The notes under the pieces: generated by a model | The model's input: the letters and a program-made list of their open reading frames with translations, nothing else | The model's database searches: none | Told to the model about the DNA's origin: nothing | Shown here: in pieces, positions 4,041 to 52,406 of the stretch | Position numbering within the stretch: the stretch's first letter is position 1 | Layout of the letters: each line of letters opens with the position of its first letter | Made by a program: the position numbers and the translations under genes | Origin: a virus | Taxonomy: Duplodnaviria > Caudoviricetes | IMG/VR virus record: IMGVR_UViG_3300037067_026010 | Span: 96,001 to 160,000 of that record | Reading direction: 5' to 3' (one strand) | Length of the DNA: 64,000 nt

Positions 4041-4058
4041 GCGGTAATTAAGCACCGC
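4041..4058. repeat. 18-bp dispersed quasi-palindrome, copy 1
   Basis: GCGGTAATTAAGCACCGC, flanked by extra arms ACCGGCA/TGCCGGT; just downstream of stop at 4082. Confidence 0.9.
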
Positions 4059-4081
4059 TGCCGGTATGCCGGGAGGCGCGA

Positions 4082-4582
4082 TCAGTCGCGGACCCGTTGC
4101 TCCCGCTCCTCGGCGTCGAGGTTGCGTTGGTAAACGCAGGCAATCGTCATATCGCCCTCGAAATGCTGATCGCCGTGCTCGGGATGCGGCAAAGATGCCA
4201 CGCCGTCGCGGGTCTTGAATACCGGTCCGACGTACTGTGCCGGGATGTCCTCCGTGCCTGGGCAAACCGCACGGATTGCCGCAACCACTTTCTCGGCATC
4301 GCAATCGAACGCGTCGCCGCGTTCCAGGATATGCCGGGCGCCTTGGGTGCTGCCGATGGCCATCTGCCGGTTGAGGCGTGGCTTCGCGCCGGCTGGCAAC
4401 TCCCGAATGCGCACCAGAATCACGTCGCCCTGATGCGACACGGTGCCGATTTCGAAATCCGCGTCCGTGAACGTGCGCGGAGCGTCGTTGACCATCCGCT
4501 CGGGAACCGCTTGCTTGGAGGCCGATTTCTTGGTTTGCTGCTTGGTTTGTTTGGATGCCTTGCTCGCTAAAACTTCCGTCAT
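4082..4582 (-). CDS. Conserved partner of DUF6745 proteins (QGDV...H...HxEH family)
   Basis: HQGDV, ARHIL, HPEH, YQR motifs; directly downstream of the DUF6745 gene. Confidence 0.75.
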   Translation of the reverse strand: MTEVLASKASKQTKQQTKKSASKQAVPERMVNDAPRTFTDADFEIGTVSHQGDVILVRIRELPAGAKPRLNRQMAIGSTQGARHILERGDAFDCDAEKVVAAIRAVCPGTEDIPAQYVGPVFKTRDGVASLPHPEHGDQHFEGDMTIACVYQRNLDAEEREQRVRD

Positions 4583-4733
4583 TTGTCAACTCCTTAACTT
4601 CCGTGGGCGTACGTTTGGCAAACTGCAGAGTATCAGCAGTATGCTTTGCGTACCAGTTTCACTCCAACTAGGACAATTACACCATACCGTAGACCGCCAA
4701 AACGGTCAATCGCGCCGCACTATTGCGGACTAA

Positions 4734-5672
4734 TCAACTTCGGTGGATTGCGTACCGGTCGAGCAGATGGGACATCCACATCTGGGCCTGTTCGCAATTC
4801 TGTATCTCACGCGGAACCCCTAAGGCGTAACGGCGGCCCGTCGACGGGTCGACGAACGCGAAACGCTGCGTACCATCACGCAGCCGGTACAATACCTCAT
4901 CCTGGGCATCCCGATCGTTATGCCGCTGGTCTACGACGGCCGCCCCCGAATCCTTCAAGTAACGCTCCCAGCCGAATCTTTCGATGCGCACGCGCTTGCT
5001 TTCCGCATTGCCGTCCGCTTCGATTTCTTCGAGGGTTTGCTTTTCCGGTGCCATGACGACATTCTTCGGCACCCGTACGCCGTGAATCGCGTACACTTCG
5101 AAGCCGTCGGCATAAGCCGTCGCCGGGCCGTCGTCGCAGTGAAGACGCCCTTCCTCCATGTGCAAGCTTGTCTGCCGCTCCGAAATGACGCAGAACTTCT
5201 CGAGCGGGTAGATCAGGCACGCCTCGTCCAGGCTCTTGAACAAATCCCAAGTTTCCGGATAAGGTTTTACGCCCAATACTTCGCGCATGTACTCGTAGTA
5301 GCTGATGTATCCAGCCCAGAACTGCATATCGGAATAAGGCCACACCAGGGACAACATCGTATCCCCGGCGCGCTTTTGCATTTCCGGCCAGCCAAGATCT
5401 TGCACTCCCAGCGCCCTGGTCCGGAACTCTTCCGCCGGCGTCTCGTCCACGAAAGAGGCCAGCCAGCATACCGCCGCCCATGCGGCTACCGGCGAGGGCA
5501 TAAAAATCGTAACGATCGGCTTCTCGCGGGAAAGGATTTCCGTGTAAAATCGATCGATTTTGCCCAAGAACGTATCGCGTTTGATGCGTTCGCAACTCAT
5601 GCCGCGGGCCAATCCCGCGTCTCGGTACTTATCCAATGCAGCTACCTGTTCCTCGGTAAGTGAGGTAATCAT
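4734..5672 (-). CDS. DUF6745-family protein
   Basis: LTEEQ N-terminus, SP motif, CVISER, GRLHCDDGPA..YADGF.VYAIHGVRVP, N.E.KRV.IERFGWERY, DPSTGRRY.L.VP. Confidence 0.85.
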   Translation of the reverse strand: MITSLTEEQVAALDKYRDAGLARGMSCERIKRDTFLGKIDRFYTEILSREKPIVTIFMPSPVAAWAAVCWLASFVDETPAEEFRTRALGVQDLGWPEMQKRAGDTMLSLVWPYSDMQFWAGYISYYEYMREVLGVKPYPETWDLFKSLDEACLIYPLEKFCVISERQTSLHMEEGRLHCDDGPATAYADGFEVYAIHGVRVPKNVVMAPEKQTLEEIEADGNAESKRVRIERFGWERYLKDSGAAVVDQRHNDRDAQDEVLYRLRDGTQRFAFVDPSTGRRYALGVPREIQNCEQAQMWMSHLLDRYAIHRS

Positions 5673-5712
5673 CGTCGTTCGCTCCTTGTTTGATGGTCCG
5701 TCCTAACACAAC

Positions 5713-5740
5713 TTTATAGCCTATTTTATAGGTTAAGCAA
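5713..5740 (-). promoter_or_regulatory. Sigma70-like promoter for the DUF6745 operon
   Basis: TTGCTT-16bp-TATAAA with palindrome CCTATtttATAGG (5720-5732) in the spacer. Confidence 0.45.
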
Positions 5741-5768
5741 GGGATCCGTATCCTTGAACATCCGGTTA

Positions 5769-6020
5769 CTACCCGCGCGCCGGCGCGCGGCCTCTACTTG
5801 GCGAGAACCTGCGTTCCCCTGATCTTAGCTCGCGCCGGGTGGTCTCCCAAATATCGCCGCATACGTCCAGCAAATCACTGCCAATCAGGCAAGTCGAGAC
5901 GTACGCCGCAATTGTTCGCGCAGTTTGTTTATCGATCTGCCCCATGATCTCGTTTAGCAGGCATTGTTCTGCGGCCTGGCTTGCTGCCTGCAATTGCCGA
6001 AGCACGCCCGAGTTATTCAT
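5769..6020 (-). CDS. Small helical protein resembling array members
   Basis: 83 aa, ATGA-coupled to upstream gene. Confidence 0.6.
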   Translation of the reverse strand: MNNSGVLRQLQAASQAAEQCLLNEIMGQIDKQTARTIAAYVSTCLIGSDLLDVCGDIWETTRRELRSGERRFSPSRGRAPARG

Positions 6021-7081
6021 CGCCCGAACTGCTCCTCCAGGGCCGCCGTTGCAGCGTGCATGGCCTTAGGCAACGGAATGTGCAGCGCAACGCGGAGAAG
6101 CTCGTACAAGCTCCATATTTCCCCCAGCAATCGTGGCGTCCCCGCGGGCAATGCCGTGTCCGGTGCACAGCGGTGCAGGGCGCCGTATAGGCGCTCCGTC
6201 TCCGCCAATAGCTGTTCTGTGACATCCGACAGTGCCCACGCATCCTTGACAGGTGCCACGACTTTCGGCAGATCGCGCAGTTGGAGCCCGCACATCGCCA
6301 CGGTCCAGCAATACGCGACGGCTGTTTTGCCAAACAGATCCGTCTGAGTGCTTATATCGGCCTCGCGTGCCGGCGGCGTCGACTGCTGTAGCAACCCGAG
6401 CCAGATATTGCCAACATGTTCACGCAAACGCATGGTCCAGTATTGCACGGGGAAAGTCTGGGCGCAGCGCCCGTCTTTGTCCTTGGCGTTACGTGCATGC
6501 AGCTTCCGGATCATGGCATACAACATTTCCCACGAATTGGCCGATACCGTGTCATCCGCCGCCAGTCGCCCCAAGCACACGCCGTCGTATGCTTTTCGCA
6601 AATCAAGCACCGTTTGGTAGGCCCGACTCCAACCGTAGTCGCCTTGGACCGCTGGCTGATGCGTGGCTCCCTCCGCTGCCGTTAGACAGGCAGCTAATTG
6701 CACCCGCAGTTGCTCTATCTCCTGTGCTTGCGCCGACTCCTCTGCCCGCGCGGGTGTGCAGGCGACAGTGCAACACCGGAACACCTCGTCGAGCGGTTTG
6801 CCACTAGCCAATGCGTCGGCCAGCTCTTTGAGGCTGTCCGCTATGCGGGCAGAGACGGGAGGCGAGGCTTCCGCGGCCTCTGTGCACGATGCAGCCGCTT
6901 CGACCGGCGGGCACGTGCAAACGCGCAGCTGCTCCAACGCGGTAACGCGCGTGGCCAACGCTGCCACGTCGTCCCGCAATTGCAGCAACAGTACCTCGGA
7001 TTCTTTTACGATAACAGTTTTCGTATGTGCTGCATTTGCCACAGCTTTGGCCACTTGCGCGGCGGGTGCTTCTTGGGACAT
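6017..7081 (-). CDS. Hypothetical phage protein
   Basis: Long ORF, AGGAG SD; internal QLRVQLAACLTAA..GDYGWS..YQ.V..LR segment. Confidence 0.65.
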   Translation of the reverse strand: MSQEAPAAQVAKAVANAAHTKTVIVKESEVLLLQLRDDVAALATRVTALEQLRVCTCPPVEAAASCTEAAEASPPVSARIADSLKELADALASGKPLDEVFRCCTVACTPARAEESAQAQEIEQLRVQLAACLTAAEGATHQPAVQGDYGWSRAYQTVLDLRKAYDGVCLGRLAADDTVSANSWEMLYAMIRKLHARNAKDKDGRCAQTFPVQYWTMRLREHVGNIWLGLLQQSTPPAREADISTQTDLFGKTAVAYCWTVAMCGLQLRDLPKVVAPVKDAWALSDVTEQLLAETERLYGALHRCAPDTALPAGTPRLLGEIWSLYELLRVALHIPLPKAMHAATAALEEQFGR

Positions 7082-7137
7082 AATGTACTCCTGCAAATAA
7101 CGGGGATTAAGGTAATAAGTTTACGTTTTACAGTACG

Positions 7138-7884
7138 TTAAGAAACAGCTGTCGGTTTATGAACGCCGAATCCGCGGAAGCTATCGCAACTGCGACTCTC
7201 GTCCACCCAGCAGGCGGCCACCGGCAGTATAGCACCGGCAATAAGTGCGCTATTGAGTAAGCCCAAGGCGGTAATCGTTCCTGCACGCTCCCAGGACACG
7301 CCCCTAAGTTCACCGCACACGTGGGGTACATCCAACGCTGCCTTGGTAATAGTCACCCGCTGTGTTATCAGGTGCCAAATCGCGGCTTTGTCCTCGCGCG
7401 TAACATCATTCAACACACTAATGATGGCATGGTGCTGGAGGTCTACAAAACCCTCCAGGAGAGTGCGCAACACGTCACGCTCCGCTCCCGAAATCTCCAG
7501 GTGGTTCGCAGAGATGTACAAGTCCAAGGCCCGTTCGATAATAGGGGCAGCTTCAGATTTTTTCTCCACGGTGGGCGTGGACGCCTCTGCCTGTGCCGGG
7601 GCCGGGGCCGGGGCCGGGGCTGGAGTCGCAGCAGGCACTGCAGGTGCCGCGAGCCTATCGATTAACGGCGCGGGCGGTTCCGGAATCGTGCCGCGGATCG
7701 CGTCGTAACACAGTATGGCGTATTCGCGTGCCGTCAGCTCTATCTCTTGCGCTCCACCCCAGCTATGTTTGATCGGTTGGCCGGCGAAATAGAAACATTC
7801 CCATCGCTGGGTGTCGCGAGCGCGGCCTTGATACCAGCCAGGCTCCTGTGGGATAAACGTATCGTGTGGAATCAGATTACGCAT
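7138..7884 (-). CDS. Hypothetical protein with Pro/Ala linker
   Basis: 248-aa ORF, AGGAG SD. Confidence 0.65.
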   Translation of the reverse strand: MRNLIPHDTFIPQEPGWYQGRARDTQRWECFYFAGQPIKHSWGGAQEIELTAREYAILCYDAIRGTIPEPPAPLIDRLAAPAVPAATPAPAPAPAPAQAEASTPTVEKKSEAAPIIERALDLYISANHLEISGAERDVLRTLLEGFVDLQHHAIISVLNDVTREDKAAIWHLITQRVTITKAALDVPHVCGELRGVSWERAGTITALGLLNSALIAGAILPVAACWVDESRSCDSFRGFGVHKPTAVS

Positions 7885-7889
7885 TTTTT

Positions 7890-8417
7890 TTACTCTCCTA
7901 AAGTTAGAAGTTCAGGGTATTTGTCGGGCAATAGGATACATCCGATTTTGTCCGTACTTACGGAACACGCCTGGCGTACATCACGTCCCGCCAGGCGCCA
8001 CAGGCCCTCGACGACAACGCAACCGGTACCCAATCCGACAACATCGCCACGCACCCAACACGGTGGCCACGGATCCGAACCGATCGTCGTGCGAACAAGC
8101 ACTGTCTCTCCGACGGCAGGCAGCCAACCTGCCGGCACGACAGGTCTCACGGCGTATCCGAAGTCCGGCAGAATGTACCAGGCCCTCCGTGGCGCGGCCG
8201 TATAATACCCCGGTTCGCGGTAAACCGCGACTCTGAAGCCGGTTGGCGACAGTTGGTCGATTTCGCCGTAGTCTGCCTGCTGGTCCGGCCAATAATGCCG
8301 GATGCGGACAACCTCGCCGATGCGCGGCACCCGCTTGGCCTGCACGACCTGCGCAATCGGCTTATCCCACAACATGCGTTCTTCAGGCTGTACCTGCGGT
8401 CTGGGTCGCTTTGCCAT
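7890..8417 (-). CDS. Hypothetical protein
   Basis: Start MAKRPRPQ after GGAGG SD. Confidence 0.55.
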   Translation of the reverse strand: MAKRPRPQVQPEERMLWDKPIAQVVQAKRVPRIGEVVRIRHYWPDQQADYGEIDQLSPTGFRVAVYREPGYYTAAPRRAWYILPDFGYAVRPVVPAGWLPAVGETVLVRTTIGSDPWPPCWVRGDVVGLGTGCVVVEGLWRLAGRDVRQACSVSTDKIGCILLPDKYPELLTLGE

Positions 8418-8853
8418 CACCCACCTCCTCGGCCGGTGCCTCTTCTGAAAGCGGCGGCATGCCGACGGCCAGACCCCGCCGCCGCAGTTCGCCGAGCAAC
8501 GCTTCGGTGCTATAACGCTCCAGCGATCTTGGCACGGCTGTCCGCAATTCCTGCGCCTTCCGCCAGGCCATGAATGCTTCCGCCTTGTCGGCGAAGCTGT
8601 GCAGAGAGCCATCCGCGGCCACACTGAAGTACAGAATGCTATTTCGCTCTCCCTGCTCGGTAAATTCTCTCTGCCCGGCTGCAACGATATCGCCTCGCTC
8701 GGCCTGCACCGTCAACAATCCGCAATATTCGCCTCCCGCGAAGGTGCCGTAATGCCACGCGTCCGCCCCGCTCTCCGCGAACTCTACGCGGGCGATCCAC
8801 GGCTGGCCATAACGCTTTGCGCTGTAGGCGCTGGTACTGAGTTCTATTTGCAC
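8383..8853 (-). CDS. Hypothetical phage protein
   Basis: GTG start; Y..KRYGQPWIARV, GDIVAAGQR motifs. Confidence 0.6.
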   Translation of the reverse strand: MQIELSTSAYSAKRYGQPWIARVEFAESGADAWHYGTFAGGEYCGLLTVQAERGDIVAAGQREFTEQGERNSILYFSVAADGSLHSFADKAEAFMAWRKAQELRTAVPRSLERYSTEALLGELRRRGLAVGMPPLSEEAPAEEVGDGKATQTAGTA

Positions 8854-8857
8854 TTGT

Positions 8858-9412
8858 CTACCCTTTCTGTGGTTTACCGTTCGTTTTTTCGGCGTACGGC
8901 AGTTTCTGCGCGATGATGGTGTTCCCCTTGCGGACATTGCAGGCCTTGCAGGCCAACTGCAGATTCAATACGCTGTTCGACCCGCCGCGATGGATCGGGA
9001 TAATATGATCCAACGTCGCTATAGGTAGAGTCTTGTCTGCCCCGGCTTGGTTAGCCAACCGTAGCTTGCAGCCGCAGAGGCTGCAATAGGGGTGTTTATC
9101 GAAAAGCTTGCGCTTGATCCGATAATAGTGATCCTGCGATTCAAGCCGCGCCCCGCGCTTCGTGCCGCCCTGCCCGACCTGCGCCGCCAGGATTGCCGTG
9201 CGCATGCCTCCATTGTGGGAGCCGTGTGTGCCTTGCACATGATACTTCGGCCCGTCCTTGGCATAAGGCCAGAAGTTCACGGTAAACGGCCCGTCGAGAA
9301 TCTGCCAATGAAAGTCCGTGCAGCGGTACGCCCGAAGCTTCGCCCCCTCCACGAGTTTCTGGAATTGTGCGAAGGTCGGACGCCGCTGGAACTCCTCGTA
9401 AGTGATGTGCAT
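8858..9412 (-). CDS. HNH endonuclease
   Basis: CSLC...ATLDHIIPIHRGGSNSVLNLQLACKACNVRKG. Confidence 0.85.
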   Translation of the reverse strand: MHITYEEFQRRPTFAQFQKLVEGAKLRAYRCTDFHWQILDGPFTVNFWPYAKDGPKYHVQGTHGSHNGGMRTAILAAQVGQGGTKRGARLESQDHYYRIKRKLFDKHPYCSLCGCKLRLANQAGADKTLPIATLDHIIPIHRGGSNSVLNLQLACKACNVRKGNTIIAQKLPYAEKTNGKPQKG

Positions 9413-9419
9413 GACACCC

Positions 9420-9842
9420 TCACGTTCCGCTGCTTGTCGACAGCCGTTTGAGGCAATCGGGGCAGTATAGGTTACCCTTGTACATCCGCCATCCGGTGGC
9501 ATTAAGCACGACGCGCAAAGCGCAGCGCGCGGATGCTTCGCCAACACCTTCCACGTTGCGCCGGCACGCGCAATCGTGGCATAGGACAAATACCTGAGAC
9601 TGCATGGCCGCGTCCAGCGCATCGGCCACGGGGGTCGCAGGTGCCGAAGTTGTCACGGTCGGCACGTGGGGCACAGGCAACGGTTGCGGCGCTGCCTCCG
9701 GCTCTTGCAGCGTTTGCAGTATTTCGCCGTAGGCTTTAAGTCGCCACTGGATCAGTTCGTGCTGCGCCGTTTCGGCAGCTTGGAGCCCAGCCAGGCCTTG
9801 CCGTACGCGGTCGAGGGTCTCCCGTCGTTCTGTTGTCGTCAT
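9420..9842 (-). CDS. Coiled-coil plus C-terminal Zn-finger protein
   Basis: CHDC...GW.....YCPDC. Confidence 0.6.
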   Translation of the reverse strand: MTTTERRETLDRVRQGLAGLQAAETAQHELIQWRLKAYGEILQTLQEPEAAPQPLPVPHVPTVTTSAPATPVADALDAAMQSQVFVLCHDCACRRNVEGVGEASARCALRVVLNATGWRMYKGNLYCPDCLKRLSTSSGT

Positions 9843-9851
9843 GTTTGCACC

Positions 9852-10238
9852 TTATACCTTGTCTATGTGAGTGCCGTCGTCTTCGGCGGCAAAGTATTGT
9901 TTAGGATGTACTGGCACGGTAAATTCCACCAGCGCGATATTGGCGATGTCGACGAGGTGTTCCGCATTGCCGGTCTCGCGATAAGCGTCCAGGTGCTTTT
10001 GCATCCCGGAAATGTTGTCGTAACGCCGAGTCTTTTGCACTTCAAGGGGGCCGTAACGGTAGGCCCCCACGATCAGTCTGTTGCGCATTAGCCGCTCGAA
10101 CTCGGCGTTCCACTGCGTTTGAATAAGCTTCTCGTGGTCCGCATCGCTGACGTGCTCCGGGACCGGCGGGTCCGGCAGGCCGCATTTCCAGCACCAGGCC
10201 GCTGCGAAGAATTCGGAGAGTAACTGCGGTCCGTCCAT
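9852..10238 (-). CDS. Conserved phage protein, possibly MazG-like NTP pyrophosphohydrolase fold
   Basis: LMRNRL..GAYRYG, Y..TGNAEHLVDIANIA..EF. Confidence 0.55.
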   Translation of the reverse strand: MDGPQLLSEFFAAAWCWKCGLPDPPVPEHVSDADHEKLIQTQWNAEFERLMRNRLIVGAYRYGPLEVQKTRRYDNISGMQKHLDAYRETGNAEHLVDIANIALVEFTVPVHPKQYFAAEDDGTHIDKV

Positions 10239-10489
10239 AGCTGGCCTCGTCTCGTCGAGATAGCTGCTTCCTGTATTAGATTACCCAGGGCTTCGAGGTG
10301 CTTACCCTTAGTGCCGCCGGACTAGGCAAGTGCCGACGATGCTGCCGAAAAGAAACTATAGCAAACTGCCTGGCAAATTGCCAGCATGTACTTCGCAATA
10401 AAAAACGCGCCCCGGCGCCGGGATGCGTTCGCGGGGCAGGACGAACGCACAAGAACCGGTCACCGGGGCGCACAGTAAGACACGCCGCG

Positions 10490-10517: not shown

Positions 10518-10535
10518 GCGGTGTTTAATTACCGC
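10518..10535. repeat. 18-bp repeat copy 2 (reverse orientation)
   Basis: GCGGTGTTTAATTACCGC; just downstream of ParB stop at 10552. Confidence 0.85.
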
Positions 10536-10551: not shown

Positions 10552-11424
10552 TTACTCAGCAAACGAGTCCAGCAGCTGGATCAGGTCGCTGATGGTGGCA
10601 TCCACCGATGCTGCGATCGCTTCACGGTCTTTTTTCGCACAACCTTTGTAAAGTCGATCGAATTCCTGCGCGGGCATATCCAGGTATTCTCCTACGCGCG
10701 CCCTGATTTGCTTCATAAAACCCAACAAGCGCACGACATGGTCCTTGGGAGATTGTATGGCACCCACCCTTACTGAGGCGGTTCGCGACGCGCCCATGAT
10801 GAATCGGCGTGCCTCCGACATGCCCATTTTGGCGGCGGTAATGCGCTTTGCCAGCTCCAGTTGCATTTCCTGCGGCAGCGGCACGAGCAATTGCGCCAGG
10901 GAGAACGTCAGCCTACCGCTGCCGCCGGCGCGCTCCCGCTTCTTGTCGCACGGCGCCACCAGCATCGGCCGGATTTCCGGATGCAATCTGCAGAGGTTCG
11001 CGTGCTGCATGACGTAGCACGTCGATTTGCCGAATATCTCGGCGATCTCTTTGACGGTTTTGCCGTGCGCCGAAAGCCGGTTTACCGCTGCGGCGATCTC
11101 CAGGCAGTTGTGTTTCTGCGCGTGAAAATTCGCCATGACGGCGACGGCAAAGCGATCCTCGGGCTCGGGTCGCACGATAACTTCGATAGGTATATTGGCA
11201 TGCAGACAGGCCTGCAGTCTGCGCTCGCCGTCGATCAGCTCGTAGTCGTAGCCCTCCAAGTCGCACGTAGTGACCTCGATCGGCTGACGCTGGCCGAAGG
11301 TCTTGATGCTTCGGGCCAGCTGCGCAATGTTGCGAAAATCGCTTCGCGGTTGCCCGACAAATGGTTTGACGCGCGCAGGGTCTACTGTCGCCAGGCGCGA
11401 TTGCGCCTGCTTTATCTTTTCCAT
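10552..11424 (-). CDS. ParB/Spo0J-like partition protein
   Basis: QPR..F, LARSI...GQ.QPI.V, YELIDGERRLQA, N-(AQK)H, HTH TVKEIAEIFGKS. Confidence 0.85.
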   Translation of the reverse strand: MEKIKQAQSRLATVDPARVKPFVGQPRSDFRNIAQLARSIKTFGQRQPIEVTTCDLEGYDYELIDGERRLQACLHANIPIEVIVRPEPEDRFAVAVMANFHAQKHNCLEIAAAVNRLSAHGKTVKEIAEIFGKSTCYVMQHANLCRLHPEIRPMLVAPCDKKRERAGGSGRLTFSLAQLLVPLPQEMQLELAKRITAAKMGMSEARRFIMGASRTASVRVGAIQSPKDHVVRLLGFMKQIRARVGEYLDMPAQEFDRLYKGCAKKDREAIAASVDATISDLIQLLDSFAE

Positions 11425-11522
11425 CGGCTTCCTTCCTCGCATAAGTCCGCAGTACGCCGAGTTTTCCATACTCACGTTCGTAGGTGGCATTTCGCGCCCT
11501 TTGTACCTGTTCCTGGTAATTC

Positions 11523-11540
11523 GCGGTGCTTAACTACCGC
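11523..11540. repeat. 18-bp repeat copy 3 (reverse orientation)
   Basis: GCGGTGCTTAACTACCGC; supplies the stop of ORF 11530-11709. Confidence 0.85.
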
Positions 11541-14632: not shown

Positions 14633-14636
14633 TTTG

Positions 14637-15858: not shown

Positions 15859-16039
15859 GTGATTTCCCTTCGTACAAATCATGGTTTTCGGTATTGGGTC
15901 AGGAATGTGTTGCCGGAATCCTTCTTGAAATGTTTTTTCTTTTTTGCAATCCACCCGAAAGAGTAATAGGCGCATCGGATTCCATTGGGATACATTGAAT
16001 CCAGCTTGGATTCCAAATGGCATTTCTAAGGGAAAAACT

Positions 16040-24125: not shown

Positions 24126-24143
24126 GCGGTGCTTAATTACCGC
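24126..24143. repeat. 18-bp repeat copy 4 (reverse orientation)
   Basis: GCGGTGCTTAATTACCGC; supplies the stop of 24137-24352. Confidence 0.9.
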
Positions 24144-30964: not shown

Positions 30965-30982
30965 GCGGTAATTAAGCACCGG
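30965..30982. repeat. 18-bp repeat copy 5
   Basis: GCGGTAATTAAGCACCGG; supplies the stop of 30972-31175. Confidence 0.88.
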
Positions 30983-36655: not shown

Positions 36656-36673
36656 GCGGTGCTTAATTACCGC
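36656..36673. repeat. 18-bp repeat copy 6 (reverse orientation)
   Basis: GCGGTGCTTAATTACCGC between stop 36708 and the array promoter. Confidence 0.9.
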
Positions 36674-38023: not shown

Positions 38024-38236
38024 ATGCAAAGCCAAATGCTCGTGGAAGACCTGATCCGACACCTCCAGCAGCACCACCCGAAGTGCCCCGTCGTCATTGA
38101 AGGCGAGGCGACCTGCAGGCCGCAGTTCATCCTGGCCGGCACGGAGCAGGTATACGTCGGACCAGTTCCCACCGATCTGTCCAATCCCGAATACTTCCGA
38201 GAGGTGGATGTCGTGCGCATCGTCCCCGGTAATTAA
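38024..38236 (+). CDS. Small hypothetical protein
   Basis: AAGGAGG SD; V.DLI..LQ..HP..PVVI. Confidence 0.65.
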   Translation: MQSQMLVEDLIRHLQQHHPKCPVVIEGEATCRPQFILAGTEQVYVGPVPTDLSNPEYFREVDVVRIVPGN

Positions 38237-38243
38237 GCACCGC
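38226..38243. repeat. 18-bp repeat copy 7
   Basis: CCGGTAATTAAGCACCGC between convergent genes; supplies the stop of 38024-38236. Confidence 0.88.
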
Positions 38244-44441: not shown

Positions 44442-46439
44442 TTAGGCTGTTTCCTGGCGAGCGTCCTTGTCGCCTAGAGATATTACTCGCAAATGTCGTC
44501 CGTACCGCATTAAGTGCAGCATGTCGGCCGCTTGCTTCGGGTATTGCTGCTCCAGTAACTGGGATCCGGCGGCTTGCCGTGCTTGCTGCCGTTGGTCGTC
44601 CATAATGCTGCGCACCAGTGCCGCCAGTGCCGGCGCATCCTTCTTCAACCGAATCAGGAACGAATCCTTCTGCGATTCCGGCATGGACAGTGCCTGTGCA
44701 GCCAACGTTTGGGCCTTGCTCGTGAGTTCTTGCGGCGTCGTCGGTGCGGTCTCGCTATAATTCTGCGCCGCGAAGGCTTGCGCCGCTCCGGCCGGGCCTT
44801 GAGGCATGCCCATAGCCCCCATGGGGGCGCCGGCAGGTTGGCCAGCCCCTGGCATACCGCCGGGTATACCGCCTGGCATACCACCTGGCATGGCCGCGGC
44901 CGGCTGTGCCATTTGGTCGCCCTGTGCCGCTGCCTCCATCTCCTCCTGCTGCTTTTGTGCGGATTCGGCAGCGATGCGTTCTTCTTCCAGCTTGGTTCGC
45001 TCCTCGTCCAGGAAATCGAGCCCGACGCTGGTAAGACCGGTGCTTCTGGAAATCTGACCGCCCATCATCAACTGGAGTTTGGCCATCTGACGATTGAGGT
45101 CGTCGGCATGCGTAACGCGCACTAATCGGCAACTGACAGGTTCCCAGCTCATAATCTGCGATATACGGTCGACAAGTTGCCCAAGGAACCTATTCAGGTT
45201 ATGCACGAGGTGGCTCCAGTTCGCTTCGAAAAGTCGGAGCGCGGATGGTGCAGCCTGGGCCGACAAATTGCCCTTGTAAAGCTCTACGGGCACGTCACAA
45301 GCGTTTAATAGCATGTCCACGCCCAACTCCAGTAGATCTTTCGGCGCCAGCTGCGTCGCATCGCCACCCAGGGCCTTGTAATCGATCGGAAACGGCAGCA
45401 CGTTCCAGCGAGCAGGGTCGCGTCTGCGGGCCCGCAGCATGCCGTTTACCCGTGAGGTAAAGTTACCCATGTTCACGGACAGCACGGGATCGTTAATTTC
45501 ACCGCCTTGTCCCGGCCTCGGCATGGGTGTGAGGACACGGAACGGTATAACGTAGTCCAGGGCAATTGCCTCGTTGTAGCGATGCAATACCTGCACGTAC
45601 CACGCTTGCCGGAAATTCGTAAGGATACGCGAATATCCCCAACCACGGCTCCGAAGCCCGGCTGGCGGCTCCTCGCGCATGTGGTACACCACCTCTTTGT
45701 CGAATAGAAGATGCTGGTTCTGCCTTACCGCCTGTACGACGTCCCAGCTCGCGCGTTCGATATGATACAAATGCCCCTTCTTGAGCAATTGTCGATAGTC
45801 ATCCGGTATTTTCCAGATGTAGGCATTATCGTCCGTGTACGGATCATTGAGGATATCGATTTCGTGCGGTGACCATCTTTTGACTTTGATAGCGTTTTGC
45901 TCGCTGCTGCGCCGATCCACGTGCCGCCATATGCCTTGATAACCGCAGTTTAAACACCGGGCATTGAACTCGAAGTTCGACCAGGAAAAATGCATATGGG
46001 GATTGTTGAATATCCGTGACAAGGGCATCTCTACGCCGCAGTTTTTACAAGCCAAATGCCGCCTGAAGGGCAGTAGCACGCTGGTAAAAGAATTACCGTA
46101 GATCAGTAGGTCCAGGGCGACGATATGCAAAACGTTGCGAATGCCCAGTGTGTTGTCCAAGAAGTCTTTATACTTGTCGCGCTCCTCGCGGCCTACCTTG
46201 TCTACGCCGTTCGGCGCAGTAATTTCCACGTCAGTTAAAAAATAAGAGATGACGCGGCTCAGGGCAGCCCGGTACGGGCCCATCGCCATGGCGATATACT
46301 GGCACCATTGGAGGGCGTCCTGGTTGGTCTTCGGCATCGCGAGCGACGCCATATCCGCGAACGGACAAGGGAATAGCTCCGAATTACGTCCTGTAGTCCA
46401 AGCCGGGCTAATGCCCAGGGAATTGTCGGAGAGCGCCAA
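44442..46439 (-). CDS. Probable portal protein with Zn-ribbon insertion
   Basis: 665 aa, AGGAGG SD and TTG start; helical clip/stem pattern, VYHMR..P.G...WG, NEAIA.DY..P.RV, acidic/QPG-rich tail; CKNC/CLNC. Confidence 0.6.
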   Translation of the reverse strand: MALSDNSLGISPAWTTGRNSELFPCPFADMASLAMPKTNQDALQWCQYIAMAMGPYRAALSRVISYFLTDVEITAPNGVDKVGREERDKYKDFLDNTLGIRNVLHIVALDLLIYGNSFTSVLLPFRRHLACKNCGVEMPLSRIFNNPHMHFSWSNFEFNARCLNCGYQGIWRHVDRRSSEQNAIKVKRWSPHEIDILNDPYTDDNAYIWKIPDDYRQLLKKGHLYHIERASWDVVQAVRQNQHLLFDKEVVYHMREEPPAGLRSRGWGYSRILTNFRQAWYVQVLHRYNEAIALDYVIPFRVLTPMPRPGQGGEINDPVLSVNMGNFTSRVNGMLRARRRDPARWNVLPFPIDYKALGGDATQLAPKDLLELGVDMLLNACDVPVELYKGNLSAQAAPSALRLFEANWSHLVHNLNRFLGQLVDRISQIMSWEPVSCRLVRVTHADDLNRQMAKLQLMMGGQISRSTGLTSVGLDFLDEERTKLEEERIAAESAQKQQEEMEAAAQGDQMAQPAAAMPGGMPGGIPGGMPGAGQPAGAPMGAMGMPQGPAGAAQAFAAQNYSETAPTTPQELTSKAQTLAAQALSMPESQKDSFLIRLKKDAPALAALVRSIMDDQRQQARQAAGSQLLEQQYPKQAADMLHLMRYGRHLRVISLGDKDARQETA

Positions 46440-46459
46440 CGCGGATCCTCCTATGCCCG

Positions 46460-46477
46460 GTGGTAATTAAGCACCGC
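46460..46477. repeat. 18-bp repeat copy 8
   Basis: GTGGTAATTAAGCACCGC; supplies the stop of 46467-46640. Confidence 0.85.
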
Positions 46478-46640
46478 AGCGATTTTTCACAAGCTTTTGC
46501 TCCACGCCGTCCGCCAGCCGCTTTGTCGTATCGTCGTCGAGTGCACGTATCTGCTGCGTTTCTCCTGCAGCCTTTACGCCTGGCTCGATCTTGTGTTCCA
46601 CATCCGGAGTTTGCGGTGTTATGGCGCCGTTTTTTTCCAT
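46467..46640 (-). CDS. 57-aa protein upstream of portal (below ORF-track cutoff)
   Basis: MEKNGAITPQTP...VKNRCGA*; AAAGG SD. Confidence 0.55.
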   Translation of the reverse strand: MEKNGAITPQTPDVEHKIEPGVKAAGETQQIRALDDDTTKRLADGVEQKLVKNRCGA

Positions 46641-46659
46641 CGTCGCGGCCTTTTCGCAG

Positions 46660-47529
46660 TTAATCGCCGACCTCGGCAGTTACTTGCCTCTCGACAAGAA
46701 GTACACAGAATTCGTACTCCTTATAAATGTACTGGATTCCCGTCGTCTGCACTAGGTAGATTTCAGAACCCCCCTTAATATGCAAGGCCAGCTGCGGGAC
46801 TTTCTCACCCGTCTGGACTTCAGGAAAGTACCGGTTGGCGTTACGGCAGCGCGTATCGTAAACAAGCACCATGAAGCCTGGCGAAACAACAATATCGTGA
46901 TAATACGCTGTAAGCGTCCCGAAATGCTCTATCTCGAACAGGGCCTCGCACGTAGGTGCTTGTACCGGGTCACTCGCTACCAAATGCCCGTTGGCAGCTG
47001 CCGCGACTGGCGCCGTGGCGGCGTGCAGCGCTTGCAACGGGCTGACTACCCGGTTCCGAGGCGTTGGTTGCATCGGGGCTGTGGACACCGGCTTATTGGC
47101 CCCCTGGTCATCGAGCAAATGCATGGCAACCGCGTCATGAAAACGCTGAACCGCCATATCCCCGGATAGCGGCACGGCGGCATCGGCTGCCTGTACAGCT
47201 TTAAGCATGTGTTGTGCAGTGATATCCCCCAAGCGCAGTGTTTTACTCTGTCCGGGGATCGTCGGGTCGATCGTGACGGATAGATTGGCCACATCGTGGG
47301 GACGACTCCCAGCCGGCACTCCACCGGGCGTGGCGCGTGGTATCAATGTGCCTACAAGCCCGAAGGAACTAGGCGCCAGCCTCTGCGGCGTTGTACCGCT
47401 GCTTTCGTCGCGTACGCTCCGGTAGTTTACTGCTGCAGCGCCAGCCTGCGGTCCGACCTGTGCCGGCGGTGTGGCTGGTGCCGCCACGCCGTCATGAAGT
47501 AAATCCATGTGCAATGGTAATTGTGCCAT
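46660..47529 (-). CDS. Hypothetical protein
   Basis: C-terminal FG...AYYH.I.V....MVLVYDTR beta domain. Confidence 0.6.
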   Translation of the reverse strand: MAQLPLHMDLLHDGVAAPATPPAQVGPQAGAAAVNYRSVRDESSGTTPQRLAPSSFGLVGTLIPRATPGGVPAGSRPHDVANLSVTIDPTIPGQSKTLRLGDITAQHMLKAVQAADAAVPLSGDMAVQRFHDAVAMHLLDDQGANKPVSTAPMQPTPRNRVVSPLQALHAATAPVAAAANGHLVASDPVQAPTCEALFEIEHFGTLTAYYHDIVVSPGFMVLVYDTRCRNANRYFPEVQTGEKVPQLALHIKGGSEIYLVQTTGIQYIYKEYEFCVLLVERQVTAEVGD

Positions 47530-47675
47530 GTACTTTCCCTTTTTCCTAAAAAAAAAAATCGATTGCCGGCAAAACTCACACCAACATAGCACACCTAATT
47601 CCAAACGACAATCGAGAAGCACAAGGTGGATAAAAGCGGGACCCCCGGGCAACGGGGATCCCGCGTCACAATCCA

Positions 47676-47972
47676 TCAGGCGTCTACTGACTCCGGGAAC
47701 ACCTCTGCATATCGCGGGCACACGCCCGGCCTACGAAGTATATCCCGAGGCACGACAAAAAATAGAACGGCACACGGCCGACCCATCATGTCGTTGAGGT
47801 CCTCGCCCGTACCGAGAAGGTACCCCGCAGTTTGTCGATCTTCGTTTTCGTAAACGGCGACAACCGCGACATGCTGGGATTTTGGCCAATCGGGAAGCAG
47901 CGTAGGTGCCGCAAAGCGATTTAACCAACCCTCTGGTATTTCGTCATCGGGAGGGAAAATCTCCGTGATCAT
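47676..47972 (-). CDS. Hypothetical protein
   Basis: ATGA-coupled. Confidence 0.55.
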   Translation of the reverse strand: MITEIFPPDDEIPEGWLNRFAAPTLLPDWPKSQHVAVVAVYENEDRQTAGYLLGTGEDLNDMMGRPCAVLFFVVPRDILRRPGVCPRYAEVFPESVDA

Positions 47973-49270
47973 TTGCTGCTCCAGGTCTGGGTCGACCAAA
48001 AATCAACGGTGGCACCCGCTCGGCGGAATTGGAACGCCGAGGACAAATACGGCGCTGCGCAAAGTTGCACGCGTGCCAAGCCGGCTGCCCATAATCGCTG
48101 GGTGGGATTTCGGGCGGCTTTGACCAGGTCCTCGTCTTCGCAACATTCCGCGTATCTCGGCTCCAAGACGTTTCGCATAGCCTTCGCCAACAAAGCGTCC
48201 GGAAAAATATCGGGGTTTACCGGTCCGGTAAAGTGGATAGGCTGCCGTGGCCTGCCTAGAATATCCAAGATCTGGTCATCCGTCAAAATGTCGGACAACG
48301 AGGCACCGAGGGCCTCGCGCATACCTCGCACAAGCCTCTCCACGTCGCTCGCGTCCGTAACCTCGAGCAAATTCAGCTGCAAGGCCCTGGCAACGCTGTA
48401 GGCGGGATTAGGCAAGTCCGTCTCGCCGTGCACCGGGAAAGCCCGTCTTACCGGATTGTATATCTCAGCCCCGATCAGCCGCGATACGTTTTCGAAATTT
48501 CCGCAACTGCTATCGCTGCGGCTGCAGAATTTAGTAGAGATAAGCCATCGCCCGGTACGATTTGTCGGATCGCCACTTGCCGGGTCCTCCTCCGTACCCG
48601 CCTGATACGGCGCGGAAAAACAGTTGTGCCAAGCCTCTTCGATCACTGCGGGAGCCATGTCCGAAAGAAGCAGCTTGCGCCGGGCTTCATCGTACTCGGC
48701 ATAGTCCTCCGGGACTACCCGTCCGTTGTCCGTAAGCACTTTTTGCACGAACGCCGCAGAATACTCCGGCGGAGGCAGGTGGCCTTCGGCAAAGCCGAGC
48801 TCCACGTCCGGCAGATCTGCTTGGTGCAATGCCGGCAGGCAGTAGCCGCCGGATAACGCACGCATGCGGCACCGATCCATTTCCAGAAGCAGTTGCAACA
48901 GGCGCTGCCGACCTTCGCTGGCATAGGGGTCAAAACATCTACCTCGTGCTCCCGCGAACACCGGATAGCCCAAATCATAACAAAACCGGTTTTCCGCGTC
49001 GCCGCCCAGATATACCTGCGCGCCAGTTTGAGTAATCGCCGCACGATAACCGCGACACGGCACGGCGACACGTTCTCGATTTCTGCGATCTTCCGTTAAT
49101 ACGCTGGTCTGCACGATGTGGCAAGGCCCGCGCAGCGGAAGTCGCCACTTCCGCAAACAGGTGTTGGTATGGTCGCCGGGCGAAATACAGTACGCCACCA
49201 CACCGAACGGCTCACACTTTCGTGCGCGGGATAGGATCTGCTTCTTGTGCTTACGTACGAGCTGCGTCAT
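47969..49270 (-). CDS. Hypothetical protein
   Basis: AAGGAG SD, 433 aa. Confidence 0.65.
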   Translation of the reverse strand: MTQLVRKHKKQILSRARKCEPFGVVAYCISPGDHTNTCLRKWRLPLRGPCHIVQTSVLTEDRRNRERVAVPCRGYRAAITQTGAQVYLGGDAENRFCYDLGYPVFAGARGRCFDPYASEGRQRLLQLLLEMDRCRMRALSGGYCLPALHQADLPDVELGFAEGHLPPPEYSAAFVQKVLTDNGRVVPEDYAEYDEARRKLLLSDMAPAVIEEAWHNCFSAPYQAGTEEDPASGDPTNRTGRWLISTKFCSRSDSSCGNFENVSRLIGAEIYNPVRRAFPVHGETDLPNPAYSVARALQLNLLEVTDASDVERLVRGMREALGASLSDILTDDQILDILGRPRQPIHFTGPVNPDIFPDALLAKAMRNVLEPRYAECCEDEDLVKAARNPTQRLWAAGLARVQLCAAPYLSSAFQFRRAGATVDFWSTQTWSSK

Positions 49271-49399
49271 CTCAGACTCCTTCTGCGGTCGTTGCCGCCA
49301 TAAGTGTAACTCGGTTAGCTCCAATAGAAAAAGGAAGCTACCAGTAGCTTCCTTGCTAACAGAGTGATCACTTAGATATGCCCGGTTTGCATCGCGAAT

Positions 49400-50065
49400 T
49401 TAGCCGACGGGCATCACTGGAGTGTCCTCGTCTTCCACGGGCAATGGCAGCTCGATGGAATCCTCGTCGGCTGCCGCATCGACCGGCGGCGGCCGTACAA
49501 TAGTCGTGATCGGGCTCTCGCGGCCAACCCAGCCGTGCGCTTCCACTTCAACCTGGTCCGGCTGCGGCAATTGAAACAACGGCAACATTCCGAAAGGCGT
49601 CAAGAGGTGCCGCATCTCGCCCTTAGTAATCTGCAACCAATAGCCCATAAACGGAAATAGGGCTGTTTCCGTACCGACCAAGGCCGTAATTCGCTCGCAC
49701 AGCTGCTCGACGCGATCAAACACTTCCACGCTGGGCATCTCGTCCTCGGGAAGCCGCACCAGGTAAAATTTCTGGTCCTGCGCCATCCGTGACTGGAGTA
49801 ACTGGTGCAGCATGTATTGCGCTGGCGGCGCATGCCGAAACTTCTCGACCTCCGGTGCCAAGTCGGACTTGGCCTGGGCCACTTGTGCCAACACTTCGTT
49901 AAGCTGCCGGGTAGCTTCCACCACCTGGGCCGAGAGATCCTCGTAGCGGCCCGGTTGTGGCGGGCTGATCGGTTGCAGCAATGGCGCATCCTGCGCCTGG
50001 TTCGCTGCGGTTTCCGGCGTCTCCGGCGTCTGTCGCAACGGCATCGTTCGGTTTGTATTGCTCAT
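49400..50065 (-). CDS. Hypothetical protein
   Basis: GGAGG SD. Confidence 0.65.
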   Translation of the reverse strand: MSNTNRTMPLRQTPETPETAANQAQDAPLLQPISPPQPGRYEDLSAQVVEATRQLNEVLAQVAQAKSDLAPEVEKFRHAPPAQYMLHQLLQSRMAQDQKFYLVRLPEDEMPSVEVFDRVEQLCERITALVGTETALFPFMGYWLQITKGEMRHLLTPFGMLPLFQLPQPDQVEVEAHGWVGRESPITTIVRPPPVDAAADEDSIELPLPVEDEDTPVMPVG

Positions 50066-50315
50066 CGTCTACCTCCGCAGGCACATATAACACGGCCAAT
50101 CCAATTACGACGCATTTTACAGTCAGATCTTCGGTACACCAATGGGTATGCATCCCCAACTGTCCGGGATGCGTGATGGTTGCCGCTGTCTGCTGCAACC
50201 ACTCCGCCACCTGGACATCGATAGCCTTCTCTTCGGCAAGCACGCTCCAGGTTTCGGGAGTTTCCCGTTTGTAATGGATTTGCTGCAAAAATGTTTTTAT
50301 AAGCTGTCTTGTCAT
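49899..50315 (-). CDS. Hypothetical protein (3' overlap with next gene)
   Basis: In-line after 50318. Confidence 0.5.
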   Translation of the reverse strand: MTRQLIKTFLQQIHYKRETPETWSVLAEEKAIDVQVAEWLQQTAATITHPGQLGMHTHWCTEDLTVKCVVIGLAVLYVPAEVDDEQYKPNDAVATDAGDAGNRSEPGAGCAIAATDQPATTGPLRGSLGPGGGSYPAA

Positions 50316-50317
50316 AT

Positions 50318-50662
50318 TCAGGAGTCCTGTTCCTCGGCCAGCGAGCGACTTTTTGCTTCCTGCATGGCCTTTGCACGCTCCCGTCTCTGCTCGCGCCGAC
50401 GATTGTATTCTGCCGGCGGAAGATCGAAGTTATGCCGCACGCTGGCGAGCTTGTCCAGATCGCTTATTTCCAGCGCGCCGTTATGCACGCTGACCCGCAC
50501 CAAATAACGCCGCTGCATTCCGCCGTCGCCTGTTATGGTGATATACCCGGCACCGGCCAGCACTTGACGCGTCGGAACGCGCACGGTCCATTCGCACCCG
50601 TCCTCTGTGGCCTTTAAGCCCTCCATTTCCATGGAAAGCGGCGCTTGAAACGATATTTTCAT
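50318..50662 (-). CDS. Hypothetical protein
   Basis: ATGA-coupled. Confidence 0.6.
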   Translation of the reverse strand: MKISFQAPLSMEMEGLKATEDGCEWTVRVPTRQVLAGAGYITITGDGGMQRRYLVRVSVHNGALEISDLDKLASVRHNFDLPPAEYNRRREQRRERAKAMQEAKSRSLAEEQDS

Positions 50663-51336
50663 ACGATGTCCTTATTAGGGTAGATACGATCAGCTAGTGC
50701 TTGTGGGTCTGGGGGAGGTCCCAACACGGCCTCTGCCTCGCGCACGATGGCTTCATCCGGTTCCCGCAACGCCACGTGTGGCAGAGTACGCGGTGGATCC
50801 ACCGCAGGTGCCAGATATACCAGGTTACGATTTGTCGAAACTCCGAAAACTGTAATAGCTAAAATAGGCAGATCCCGTAACATCCGCAATTGCCCTAAGG
50901 CAGTCGAATCCACAATGCGTAATTCGTAATGAACGGCCCTCGCATAATGGTAACACTTCGTGTCGTACATGGCTACAGAGCCAAGATATCGCAGACACTC
51001 CGGCCAGCGCTCTCGACAAATGCCGTAAAGGCGGTAGTCCCAACGGATCGTTTCGCCGTCGAATGCTGTTTCGCCAAGACCTGTAAAAAATGGCGCGCCG
51101 GAGGAATCCACCGCGAAGGGCGCTGCTTCCGGCACAGATGCTGGAAGCAGCGCGTTAAACTCCCGCATCGGATCCCGGTCCAACCTGCCGTGTGTCACCA
51201 ACAGCGCCGGCGTGAAAAAGACACACTCCTCCGACATCTCGCCGAGGGTGTGAATTTTTGCCGGTTCCGGAGGCCTATCGTCAGCTTGGGCCAAGGCCGG
51301 GGCCACCACGAGCGGTTTGCCTTCGATCGGTTTCAT
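50659..51336 (-). CDS. Hypothetical protein
   Basis: In-line ORF. Confidence 0.6.
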   Translation of the reverse strand: MKPIEGKPLVVAPALAQADDRPPEPAKIHTLGEMSEECVFFTPALLVTHGRLDRDPMREFNALLPASVPEAAPFAVDSSGAPFFTGLGETAFDGETIRWDYRLYGICRERWPECLRYLGSVAMYDTKCYHYARAVHYELRIVDSTALGQLRMLRDLPILAITVFGVSTNRNLVYLAPAVDPPRTLPHVALREPDEAIVREAEAVLGPPPDPQALADRIYPNKDIV

Positions 51337-51343
51337 TAGTCAC

Positions 51344-52012
51344 CTACGCAGTTGCGGTCAGGCCTGCACGGAAGGCAAGCCCGTACGCAACCGTGGCCTG
51401 GCTACGTGCGTTAATTGTCAAATCATTCGGGCAGCTCACGCCCAGGAAATCACATAAACCGTAAATATCGATATCGCGATTACGGCATTCGCTGGGGACA
51501 ATCAGTTCAAAGGGGTCGCCCCACGGCGCCGGCGCCCATGTAGGATGCCGCCAAAGCCGCAGCCGGTTGCCCGGTCCAGCAAGTTGCTCGGTGATCTCGG
51601 CACGCACAGCATCCAGATGCATGATCTGCATCGTCGTACTGATATCGAGACCGTATAGGCTGATACCGAAATCATTCGCCGTCATTACCGGCGTCGGCAG
51701 TCCTTCGGGAAACACTGTAGCCAGCCAGTTTAATGTTCGCACCGAAACGGCGCCGGGGCTGTCGCCGGCTATGGCGACTGTCTCGAACGCGGGCTGTCCG
51801 GTCCGATCCAAGACACAGACACTGGTCAATGTGCCCGATACCGGGTAATTATGGCACTCCGCTTCCTGCTTCGCCCGCTTCTCCTGTTCCTCCTTCCTCA
51901 CCGAGTCCGGCAGCTTGCTGCGCGTCGCTACCGGGAGCATCAGAAACTGCCCCCAATCCGGCCGCCGCTGCCGTGTCGCCCCCAGGAAGTACTGCGCTCT
52001 CTGATTCGTCAT
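51344..52012 (-). CDS. Hypothetical protein
   Basis: GGAGGAG SD. Confidence 0.6.
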   Translation of the reverse strand: MTNQRAQYFLGATRQRRPDWGQFLMLPVATRSKLPDSVRKEEQEKRAKQEAECHNYPVSGTLTSVCVLDRTGQPAFETVAIAGDSPGAVSVRTLNWLATVFPEGLPTPVMTANDFGISLYGLDISTTMQIMHLDAVRAEITEQLAGPGNRLRLWRHPTWAPAPWGDPFELIVPSECRNRDIDIYGLCDFLGVSCPNDLTINARSQATVAYGLAFRAGLTATA

Positions 52013-52373
52013 CACGCTCCTCCGTTCGATTTGCATCGGTCTGTTGTTTGACTATTGCCAAAACCGGAATGACGTGGCTCAACAGAGCCTGCTGCAACTC
52101 CTCGATGGCGAACGGCCGCACAGCTTTCTGCTCGGCTGACGCGACGAATGTTCGCGCGACAAGCTGTGGATTATCCACCTCCCAGCCGTGCAACAGCTCG
52201 TTGTCCAACATCGTCCGATAAACCATGTAAAGCTGCCGTGCGGAAACCATTCCCGCTACGGCCGCTTGTAAAATTTTGCTCTGCTGCAAAAGCGTACGGG
52301 CGTCTTCCGCCGCGTGTTCCAGTTCCTCGCGCGTTGGTCCCGATCTGTTCGGCCCTGGTGCGGGTTTTGCCAT
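51849..52373 (-). CDS. Hypothetical protein (3' overlap with next gene)
   Basis: AAGGA SD. Confidence 0.5.
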   Translation of the reverse strand: MAKPAPGPNRSGPTREELEHAAEDARTLLQQSKILQAAVAGMVSARQLYMVYRTMLDNELLHGWEVDNPQLVARTFVASAEQKAVRPFAIEELQQALLSHVIPVLAIVKQQTDANRTEERDDESESAVLPGGDTAAAAGLGAVSDAPGSDAQQAAGLGEEGGTGEAGEAGSGVP

Positions 52374-52388
52374 GGCATCTGTCCTTTC

Positions 52389-52406
52389 TCGGTAATTAAG
52401 CACCGC
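52389..52406. repeat. 18-bp repeat copy 9
   Basis: TCGGTAATTAAGCACCGC; downstream of RuvC stop at 52445. Confidence 0.85.

Follow-up and report, generated by a model that had tools for sequence, protein, structure and literature searches.

What role does an 18-bp, nearly palindromic word play that recurs at gene ends along a phage genome and faces both ways? The question is raised by a 64,000-nucleotide stretch of DNA (the window), which corresponds to contig positions 96001−160000 of one 210,569-bp virus record, IMGVR_UViG_3300037067_026010, treated here as complete. The record represents a large tailed phage with genes for a portal, tail proteins, a UvsX-like recombinase and a DNA polymerase, to which cultured phages are only distant kin. 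Our answer is a tentative one: the motif could well be a dispersed, orientation-independent recognition site on duplex DNA for a sequence-specific binding protein, which is probably encoded by the phage itself.

A search with the query GCGGTAATTAAGCACCGC, allowing up to two mismatches, returned nine matches in the window, each with zero or one mismatch, compared with none in 100 dinucleotide-preserving shuffles. These are the nine copies that an initial annotation of this DNA had listed, and all of them were recovered where it had placed them. Unless marked as contig positions, coordinates are those of the window:

4041 to 4058, plus strand: motif copy, exact 18-mer, with the coding (minus) strand reading GCGGTGCTTAATTACCGC; 23 nt past the stop of the gene at 4082-4582 and 55 nt ahead of the start of the gene at 3256-3987; the flanks lengthen the palindrome.
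10518 to 10535, minus strand: motif copy, G12A variant; 16 nt past the stop of a ParB-like gene.
11523 to 11540, minus strand: motif copy, A6G variant; ends a 69-aa gene with its TAA (..GGS*); the ATG of the ParB-like gene follows after 34 nt.
24126 to 24143, minus strand: motif copy, exact; gives a TAA in the GG-TAA register (..GPR*), with the next gene start 78 nt downstream.
30965 to 30982, plus strand: motif copy, one mismatch, at the outermost base; gives the TAA of a minus-strand open reading frame (ORF; ..PGA*).
36656 to 36673, minus strand: motif copy, exact; 34 nt past a stop, heading a tandem array of small paralogous genes.
38226 to 38243, plus strand: motif copy, one mismatch, at the outermost base; the flanks lengthen the palindrome.
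46460 to 46477, plus strand: motif copy; gives the TAA of a 57-aa gene (..CGA*), with the portal start 22 nt downstream.
52389 to 52406, plus strand: motif copy, one mismatch, at the outermost base; 38 nt past the stop of the gene at 52445-53182.

In agreement with the initial annotation, five copies supply the TAA of a gene (endings GGS*, GPR*, PGA*, CGA* and PGN*), the other four lie 16−38 nt beyond a stop, and the insertion sequence at 15890−19018 contains none. The assignment at 38226 is doubtful, as the TAA there ends a 121-codon minus-strand ORF (..RGA*) and/or a questionable 70-aa plus-strand ORF (..PGN*).

Across the whole 210,569-bp contig, the 14-mer core GGTAATTAAGCACC occurs in 22 copies at up to one mismatch, about one per 9.6 kb, and this word together with its sub-words makes up the top over-represented 10- to 16-mers. 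In an oriented alignment of the copies, conservation is confined to 18 bp; the outer two bases at either end are variable, which leaves GGTAATTAAGCACC as the invariant core. Fourteen of the 18 positions are symmetric, while positions 6−7 and 12−13 are fixed yet asymmetric. An AA/TT-symmetric variant of the motif was not found, and the GC/GC-symmetric form has at most two matches, with one mismatch each. A near-symmetric GC/GC variant, GGTGCCTAAGCACC, was observed at contig 165376, outside the window, in a gene of 1454 aa; the count implies one further locus.

Two records of relatives carry versions of the motif in several copies. The first, G001 (IMGVR_UViG_3300000944_000005; 156 kb, 75% complete), has six copies of GGTTCCTATTTACC and an additional one at the portal gene, seven in all; the second, G002 (112 kb, 54% complete), has seven exact-pattern copies of GGTTYCTAAGTACC and two near copies, thus seven to nine. 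Inside each of the three genomes, the asymmetric centre is nearly invariant.

The placement of the copies is strongly biased. Gene calls were made with a crude codon-usage caller, which counted 75% of the contig as gene interior and put 179 of 186 genes (~96%) on the minus strand. Of the 22 copies, 19 sit at gene junctions and three inside ORFs (contig 10722, 49200 and 190159, all outside the window); given this share of gene interior, the chance of three or fewer interior copies is 2e-9. The initial description of the copies as always at gene ends is therefore accurate for the window and has to be relaxed to ~86% (19/22) for the genome. Roughly half of the copies provide, with their central TAA, the stop codon of the upstream ORF, nearly always in the register GGT-NNT-TAA; the remaining copies begin 2−38 nt past a stop. 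The distance to the next start codon is 0−80 nt.

The orientation of the copies is mixed. Relative to the minus strand, 14 copies read GGTGCTTAATTACC and eight read GGTAATTAAGCACC, and no replichore-like switch of orientation is seen along the contig. G001 and G002 show the same behavior, with genes ~95% one-stranded and copies facing both ways (4:3 and 6:3, respectively; 24:14 when the three genomes are pooled, p=0.14). A directional promoter, already dismissed in the initial annotation, is ruled out by the 14:8 split, given that 179/186 genes share one strand, and equally by the pattern in G001 and G002. Because the orientation is mixed and the centre asymmetric, the copies are the same object only to a reader of duplex DNA.

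Furthermore, the gaps between copies suggest a spacing more even than random in all three genomes, judged on site sets that were defined post hoc, after the data had been seen. The coefficient of variation of the gaps is 0.64 in this phage, compared with 0.94 for the null (P=0.019, for random points or random gene junctions), 0.39 in G001 (P=0.026) and 0.53 in G002 (P=0.059, or 0.002 with the exact-pattern copies alone). Without the in-gene copies, wide gaps would open across long genes.

Three options had been put forward for the motif, namely a protein-bound site, an RNA-processing signal, and a REP-like (repetitive extragenic palindromic) or recombination site. The protein-bound DNA site is the best fit among them, and we adopt it with reserve. 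The protein would read GGT and ACC one helical turn apart, together with the asymmetric A/T-rich centre, and the action of the bound protein would not depend on the direction of the site. GGT-N8-ACC, with two 3-bp half-sites 11 bp apart, is the usual geometry for a dimer with helix-turn-helix (HTH) domains. The sites would be kept at gene junctions roughly every 10 kb, where the bound protein may block or insulate read-through from one gene block into the next, as a roadblock similar to a stoperator or to KorB; alternatively, it may organise the genome into domains.

Among known systems, the closest description is that of the Cluster O mycobacteriophages, which carry 17-bp dyad repeats, TGTTCGGNNNCCGAACA, with a predicted binder (PMC4351075). 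Both systems consist of tens of near-invariant short inverted repeats that are spread genome-wide, many of them intergenic and some in genes, with a central asymmetry and no orientation bias, and most of the sites have no connection to promoters. In neither case are the phages obviously temperate, and in both a dimeric DNA-binding protein is predicted and a ParB-domain protein is present. The present motif is thus a dispersed dyad repeat of the Cluster O type: numerous, invariant, mostly intergenic, and free of orientation and promoter association. The sequences themselves are unrelated, and the arms of 3−5 bp around a conserved 8-bp centre differ from the 7-bp arms and three variable bases of Cluster O. 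Unlike in Cluster O, about half of the copies here supply a stop codon, lineage-specific versions occupy orthologous junctions, and the motif resides in a 210-kb phage that encodes an RNA polymerase and a sigma factor of its own. General word searches of the literature on such repeats in jumbo phages returned nothing relevant.

A proven mechanism that would fit the placement is offered by the stoperators of Cluster A phages, which are bound by a repressor of the L5 gp71 type. They share with the present motif an asymmetric site of 13−14 bp, at least 20 copies, and positions in short gaps, often at a stop or start codon, and the protein bound to them halts elongation. However, stoperators are co-oriented with transcription, and their reversal abolishes function (PMC9283540), in contrast to the mixed orientation found here. 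No L5 gp71-type repressor, integrase or other sign of lysogeny turned up in this phage, although no systematic repressor search was made.

The relatives indicate that the sites may follow a common reader. Portal homologues are numerous, and the motif-bearing relatives form the closest subclade, with portals 63−72% identical; the nearest relative by portal is P0002 (71% identical, 227-kb contig). The motif at the portal junction is common to six phages, namely this phage, L098, L099, L101, L102 (whose record is G001) and L105 (whose record is G002). Upstream of the portal, L098, L101 and L102 carry GGTTCCTAATTACC, L105 carries GGTTCCTAAGTACC and L099 carries GGTATCTAAGTACC, and these 14-mers lie on or just past the stop of the small pre-portal gene, ~22 nt ahead of the portal start. 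This distance of ~22 nt is found in four of the six phages. In relatives with a portal identity of 60% or less, the small gene runs directly into the ribosome-binding site of the portal gene, without the element. Six near-complete distant relatives have zero or one pattern match, which is the level of the reversed-pattern control, and a scan of IMG/VR with GGTTCCTAATTACC found no multi-copy relatives other than G001.

A second orthologous junction lies outside the window, at the gene for an SbcD/Mre11-like metallophosphoesterase (contig 176812−177966, minus strand), where the motif is present in this phage (contig 177967), in G001 (49798) and in G002 (57009), with the homology of the downstream gene confirmed. 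The ATG directly abuts the motif copy, which in this phage leaves no space for a separate ribosome-binding site, and G001 and G002 have the same arrangement. Further shared sites are G001 1913, which corresponds to G002 3365, and G001 65732, near the position of G002 72873. Shared sites have the same orientation in G001 and G002, and the copy of this phage is flipped at the SbcD-like junction.

While the sites are inherited in place, the motif differs by lineage at all copies together (GCT-TAAT, TYC-TAAG, TCC-TATT), and the versions of the relatives keep symmetry only at GGT..TA..ACC. Inheritance in place combined with one version per genome is what would be expected if many sites track the specificity of one trans-acting reader, and this suggests that the sites co-evolve with a putative trans factor, as is reported for stoperators. 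The stoperator consensus, too, reportedly varies by lineage along with its binder.

The in-gene copies show how a site can arise. The copy at contig 49200 matches at 17 of 18 positions and is written in the codons CGG TAT TTA AGC ACC GCA; compared with the homologue in G001 there is no indel, and 22 residues separate the YKE anchor from the APF anchor in each protein. A further in-gene copy, shared by L099 and L101, falls on the codons for the conserved peptide R[YF]LITP, where other phages have RHLLTP, RFLRTP or HFLHTP, and uses the A/T-rich codons CTA and ATT in DNA of 59−65% G+C. The absence of an indel and the A/T-rich codons count against insertion of a mobile 18-bp unit and speak for selection that acts on the DNA word. 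The view of the initial annotation that the constraint lies on nucleic acid rather than on protein is supported.

These observations bear directly on the possibility that the motif is a selfish or recombination sequence, either a REP-like mobile palindrome or a boundary for cassette swaps like the PeSL of T4-type phages. Such an origin would agree with a copy number that ranges from 7 to 22 among relatives, with the accessory ParB gene lying between two direct copies, and with the many copies in a 62-kb lineage-specific region. REP elements and bacterial interspersed mosaic elements (BIMEs) of enterobacteria are likewise extragenic palindromes that lie just past stops and face either way, and they can terminate transcription weakly or stabilise mRNA. 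However, REPs are 20−40 nt long, clustered, and spread by REP-associated tyrosine transposases (RAYTs), whereas the present motif occurs as single 18-bp units, one of which arose in place in a gene, and the versions in relatives do not fold. A search of the phage for a Y1/RAYT transposase (PF01797) gave no match at E<=0.1. Relatives retain sites at orthologous positions, with G001 and G002 agreeing in orientation, and the flanks of the ParB gene show no homology between the copies beyond the 18 bp. Synteny breaks at the motif, which the initial annotation had proposed to look for, are not enriched, since 7/8 motif junctions are variable compared with 48/64 (75%) of the background. Taken with the insertion-free copy, these results make a mobile or recombination element very unlikely.

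A repeat borrowed from a host was also considered. Outside the phage's own record, IMG/VR contains no exact match to the 18-mer, and its matches to the 14-mer are singletons only. Among 185,579 species genomes, the exact 18-mer has four single matches, all in unrelated metagenome-assembled genomes, with no genome enriched, and the JGI metagenome contigs contain three single matches that have nothing in common with the phage. A host repeat or DNA uptake sequence was therefore rejected, as no bacterial genome with an abundant 18-mer was found.

The motif can also be read as an RNA hairpin, placed 3'-terminally in the upstream message or 5'-terminally in the following one, which would serve as a terminator, 3'-end stabiliser, processing site or translational operator. 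The stem and the central UUAA are palindromic and hence orientation-free, the hairpins of this phage have a stem of 5−6 bp with −6.1 and −7.1 kcal/mol in the two orientations, and copies lie on or after a stop, 0−80 nt before the next start. U-rich tracts follow 4/22 copies (contig 38536, 57085, 160135 and 208842), and extended stems are found at four (contig 160135, 100043, 82046 and 134228). The relatives tell a different story: their versions form 3−4 pairs at −2.0 to −3.3 kcal/mol, without a consistent fold in context. Moreover, the outermost pair varies in 11 copies of this phage, and nine of these have lost the pairing. Since the versions of the relatives fold weakly and the outer pair is not maintained, the hairpin is a local feature of this genome and not a conserved property of the motif family.

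The four conserved asymmetric loop bases, in addition, become a different RNA in the two orientations, and Rfam has no match in the window. Elsewhere, these phages use strong hairpin-plus-U terminators of the ordinary kind. At contig 208842 a separate canonical one comes after the motif copy, and in G002 the counterpart of the contig 160135 junction has an ordinary terminator without the motif. An intrinsic terminator was rejected, as in the initial annotation, on the short (5-bp) stem, the U-tract at 4/22 copies and the −2 to −3 kcal/mol of the relatives. The RNA-processing option that the annotation had left open is weakened by the orientation independence and the conserved asymmetric core, and an RNA hairpin as the functional form of the motif appears unlikely.

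A further possibility is a compact, pseudo-symmetric promoter or initiation element of the phage's own RNA polymerase, firing both ways or irrespective of orientation. The phage encodes its own beta/beta' RNA polymerase, and promoters of phage polymerases are typically motifs of this kind, lineage-specific, highly conserved and repeated. A start codon follows many copies at a distance of 0−60 nt, with ~22 nt to the portal in four of six phages, and the motif forms an A/T-rich island flanked by G/C clamps. However, one third of the copies would then make antisense RNA in a one-strand genome, one copy lies in the loop of a strong terminator, and leader space is missing at some copies (contig 177967). 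The phage also encodes a sigma70-family factor outside the window (contig 74,711−75,196, minus strand; Sigma70_r2 57 bits, weak r4), which implies directional −35/−10 promoters. In the cultured distant relative Arash, a sigma factor is packed into virions (PMC10585845). Copies preceding sigma70 boxes had been noted initially; this is correct for 10518, which abuts a sigma70-like promoter (TTGCCC-16-TATAAT) starting directly downstream, and does not extend to the others, as this is the sole good promoter and 1/22 is no better than chance. Altogether, an initiation element of this kind is quite unlikely.

The same copy draws attention to the neighboring gene, which is enclosed by the copies at 10518 and 11523:

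10552 to 11490, minus strand: ParB-type gene, with a ParB_N CTPase domain, the GERRLQA motif and a ParB HTH domain.

Both domains score above the Pfam cut-offs (ParB_N 34 bits, HTH_ParB 28 bits), the CTP-binding motif GERRLQA is intact, and the best PDB sequence matches of the protein are ParB/Spo0J, Noc and KorB. It is an observation in its own right that a ParB-type protein with an intact CTP motif sits in a lytic-looking jumbo phage. Proteins of the ParB family bind palindromes of 13−16 bp, often beside their own gene; the sites of Noc and KorB are dispersed, and the clamps formed by ParB spread over kilobases.

The motif copies might accordingly be loading sites for this CTPase, similar to parS, to the OB sites of RK2 KorB or to the NBS sites of Noc, with clamps loaded every ~10 kb covering the genome. 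This would be a sub-case of the protein-bound site. It is in keeping with the domain content and the PDB matches, with the two direct copies that bracket the gene, one of them abutting a strong promoter, and with the even ~10-kb spacing. The known sites are likewise inverted repeats of 13−16 bp spread over a replicon, from which an HTH-CTPase spreads, and they often lie beside the gene for the protein and beside promoters. BisD is cited as a further example of the ParB family (PMC12409273). On the other side, ~1.8 doubly flanked genes are expected by chance (an estimate from 19 sites and ~200 junctions). Unlike parS, NBS and OB, which are true palindromes, the present site has a fixed asymmetric centre and no sequence likeness to them.

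The comparative data do not support the link. Detectable homologues of the ParB-type protein are found only in Mu-like transposable phages (in the early region, next to MuA, MuB and GemA) or on tiny contigs; no such motif lies near them, and the neighbors of the closest homologue are unrelated to those in this phage. The large contigs of relatives, the 228-kb record of L098 among them, yielded no homologue, and ParB_N has no match in G001, G002 or the three complete distant relatives G003−G005, where the G001 and G002 records lack the corresponding region. A weak HTH match in G002 was rejected, as the protein is of a generic HTH type and has no relation to the ParB gene. The ParB-type protein is thus a weak candidate for the binder, and we regard ParB loading at the motif as improbable.

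A broader version would have an evenly spaced grid of orientation-free sites, one per ~10−20 kb, load or anchor a genome-wide DNA-binding system in a subclade of 200-kb phages with their own RNA polymerase; in this phage, the system would be a captured CTP clamp of the ParB type, with 22 parS-like sites as its starting points for sliding. If so, the clamp would coat the genome and insulate transcription blocks or organise and protect the DNA, as a phage-wide counterpart of KorB and Noc and a new use of the ParB switch. We consider this scenario somewhat more improbable still.

Several points weigh against the recognition site for a phage-encoded protein, even in its general form. No binder was found: the seven unannotated proteins that are common to this phage, G001 and G002 and not found in G004 have no Pfam or PHROG match, and in an Atlas look-up one of them resembles RNase H and another is without a match above 0.78. 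A symmetric dimer leaves the strict asymmetric centre unexplained, so that a monomer, a heterodimer or shape readout must be assumed. Four copies of this phage resemble terminators, and the one at contig 160135 caps a long, perfect hairpin of −38 kcal/mol that is followed by a U-tract. At contig 177967, at G001 26959, 49798 and 65732, and at G002 57009, the motif makes up the entire stop-to-ATG spacer, which would also fit a signal acting on mRNA or translation. The P values for even spacing, finally, are modest.

A protein-bound site would nevertheless have consequences beyond this phage. Large uncultured phages that encode a transcription machinery of their own are poorly understood and their regulatory signals essentially unmapped, and the motif offers a testable handle on these signals. 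Identifying the binder would show how a 200-kb one-strand genome is partitioned into units and could also explain the long-puzzling repeats of the Cluster O type. If the binder were the ParB-type CTPase, CTP-clamp biology would extend to lytic phage genomes.

Other features were observed along the way. Eight of the 22 motif copies fall in a block of ~62 kb made up mostly of small genes (contig 77,000−139,000, that is, window positions 1−43,000 and the DNA upstream), for which no homologue was detectable in G001, G002 or the complete relative G004. In L098, L099, L100 and the P0002 contig, a tubulin (PF00091) gene lies 3−4 genes downstream of the portal. A link of the motif to tubulin was dropped, as PF00091 has no match in this phage, and its gene at the comparable place (38618−39763) has no Pfam match.

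At ~32,900−36,400 on the minus strand, ~15 small paralogous genes stand in tandem with a conserved junction, CTTACCGTGGAGGAcaagccATGA, which carries the C-terminal LTVE.. codons, a ribosome-binding site and an overlapping stop and start. A different repeat is present in G001 at 74,780−76,400 (plus strand), where ~28 units of a ~34-nt repeat, GTCACAATGTACGAAGCCCAYTGTAGGCTGTTGAG, are arranged in tandem with variable spacers of 15−25 nt and a period of ~49−60 nt, which gives the array a CRISPR- or TIGR-like look.

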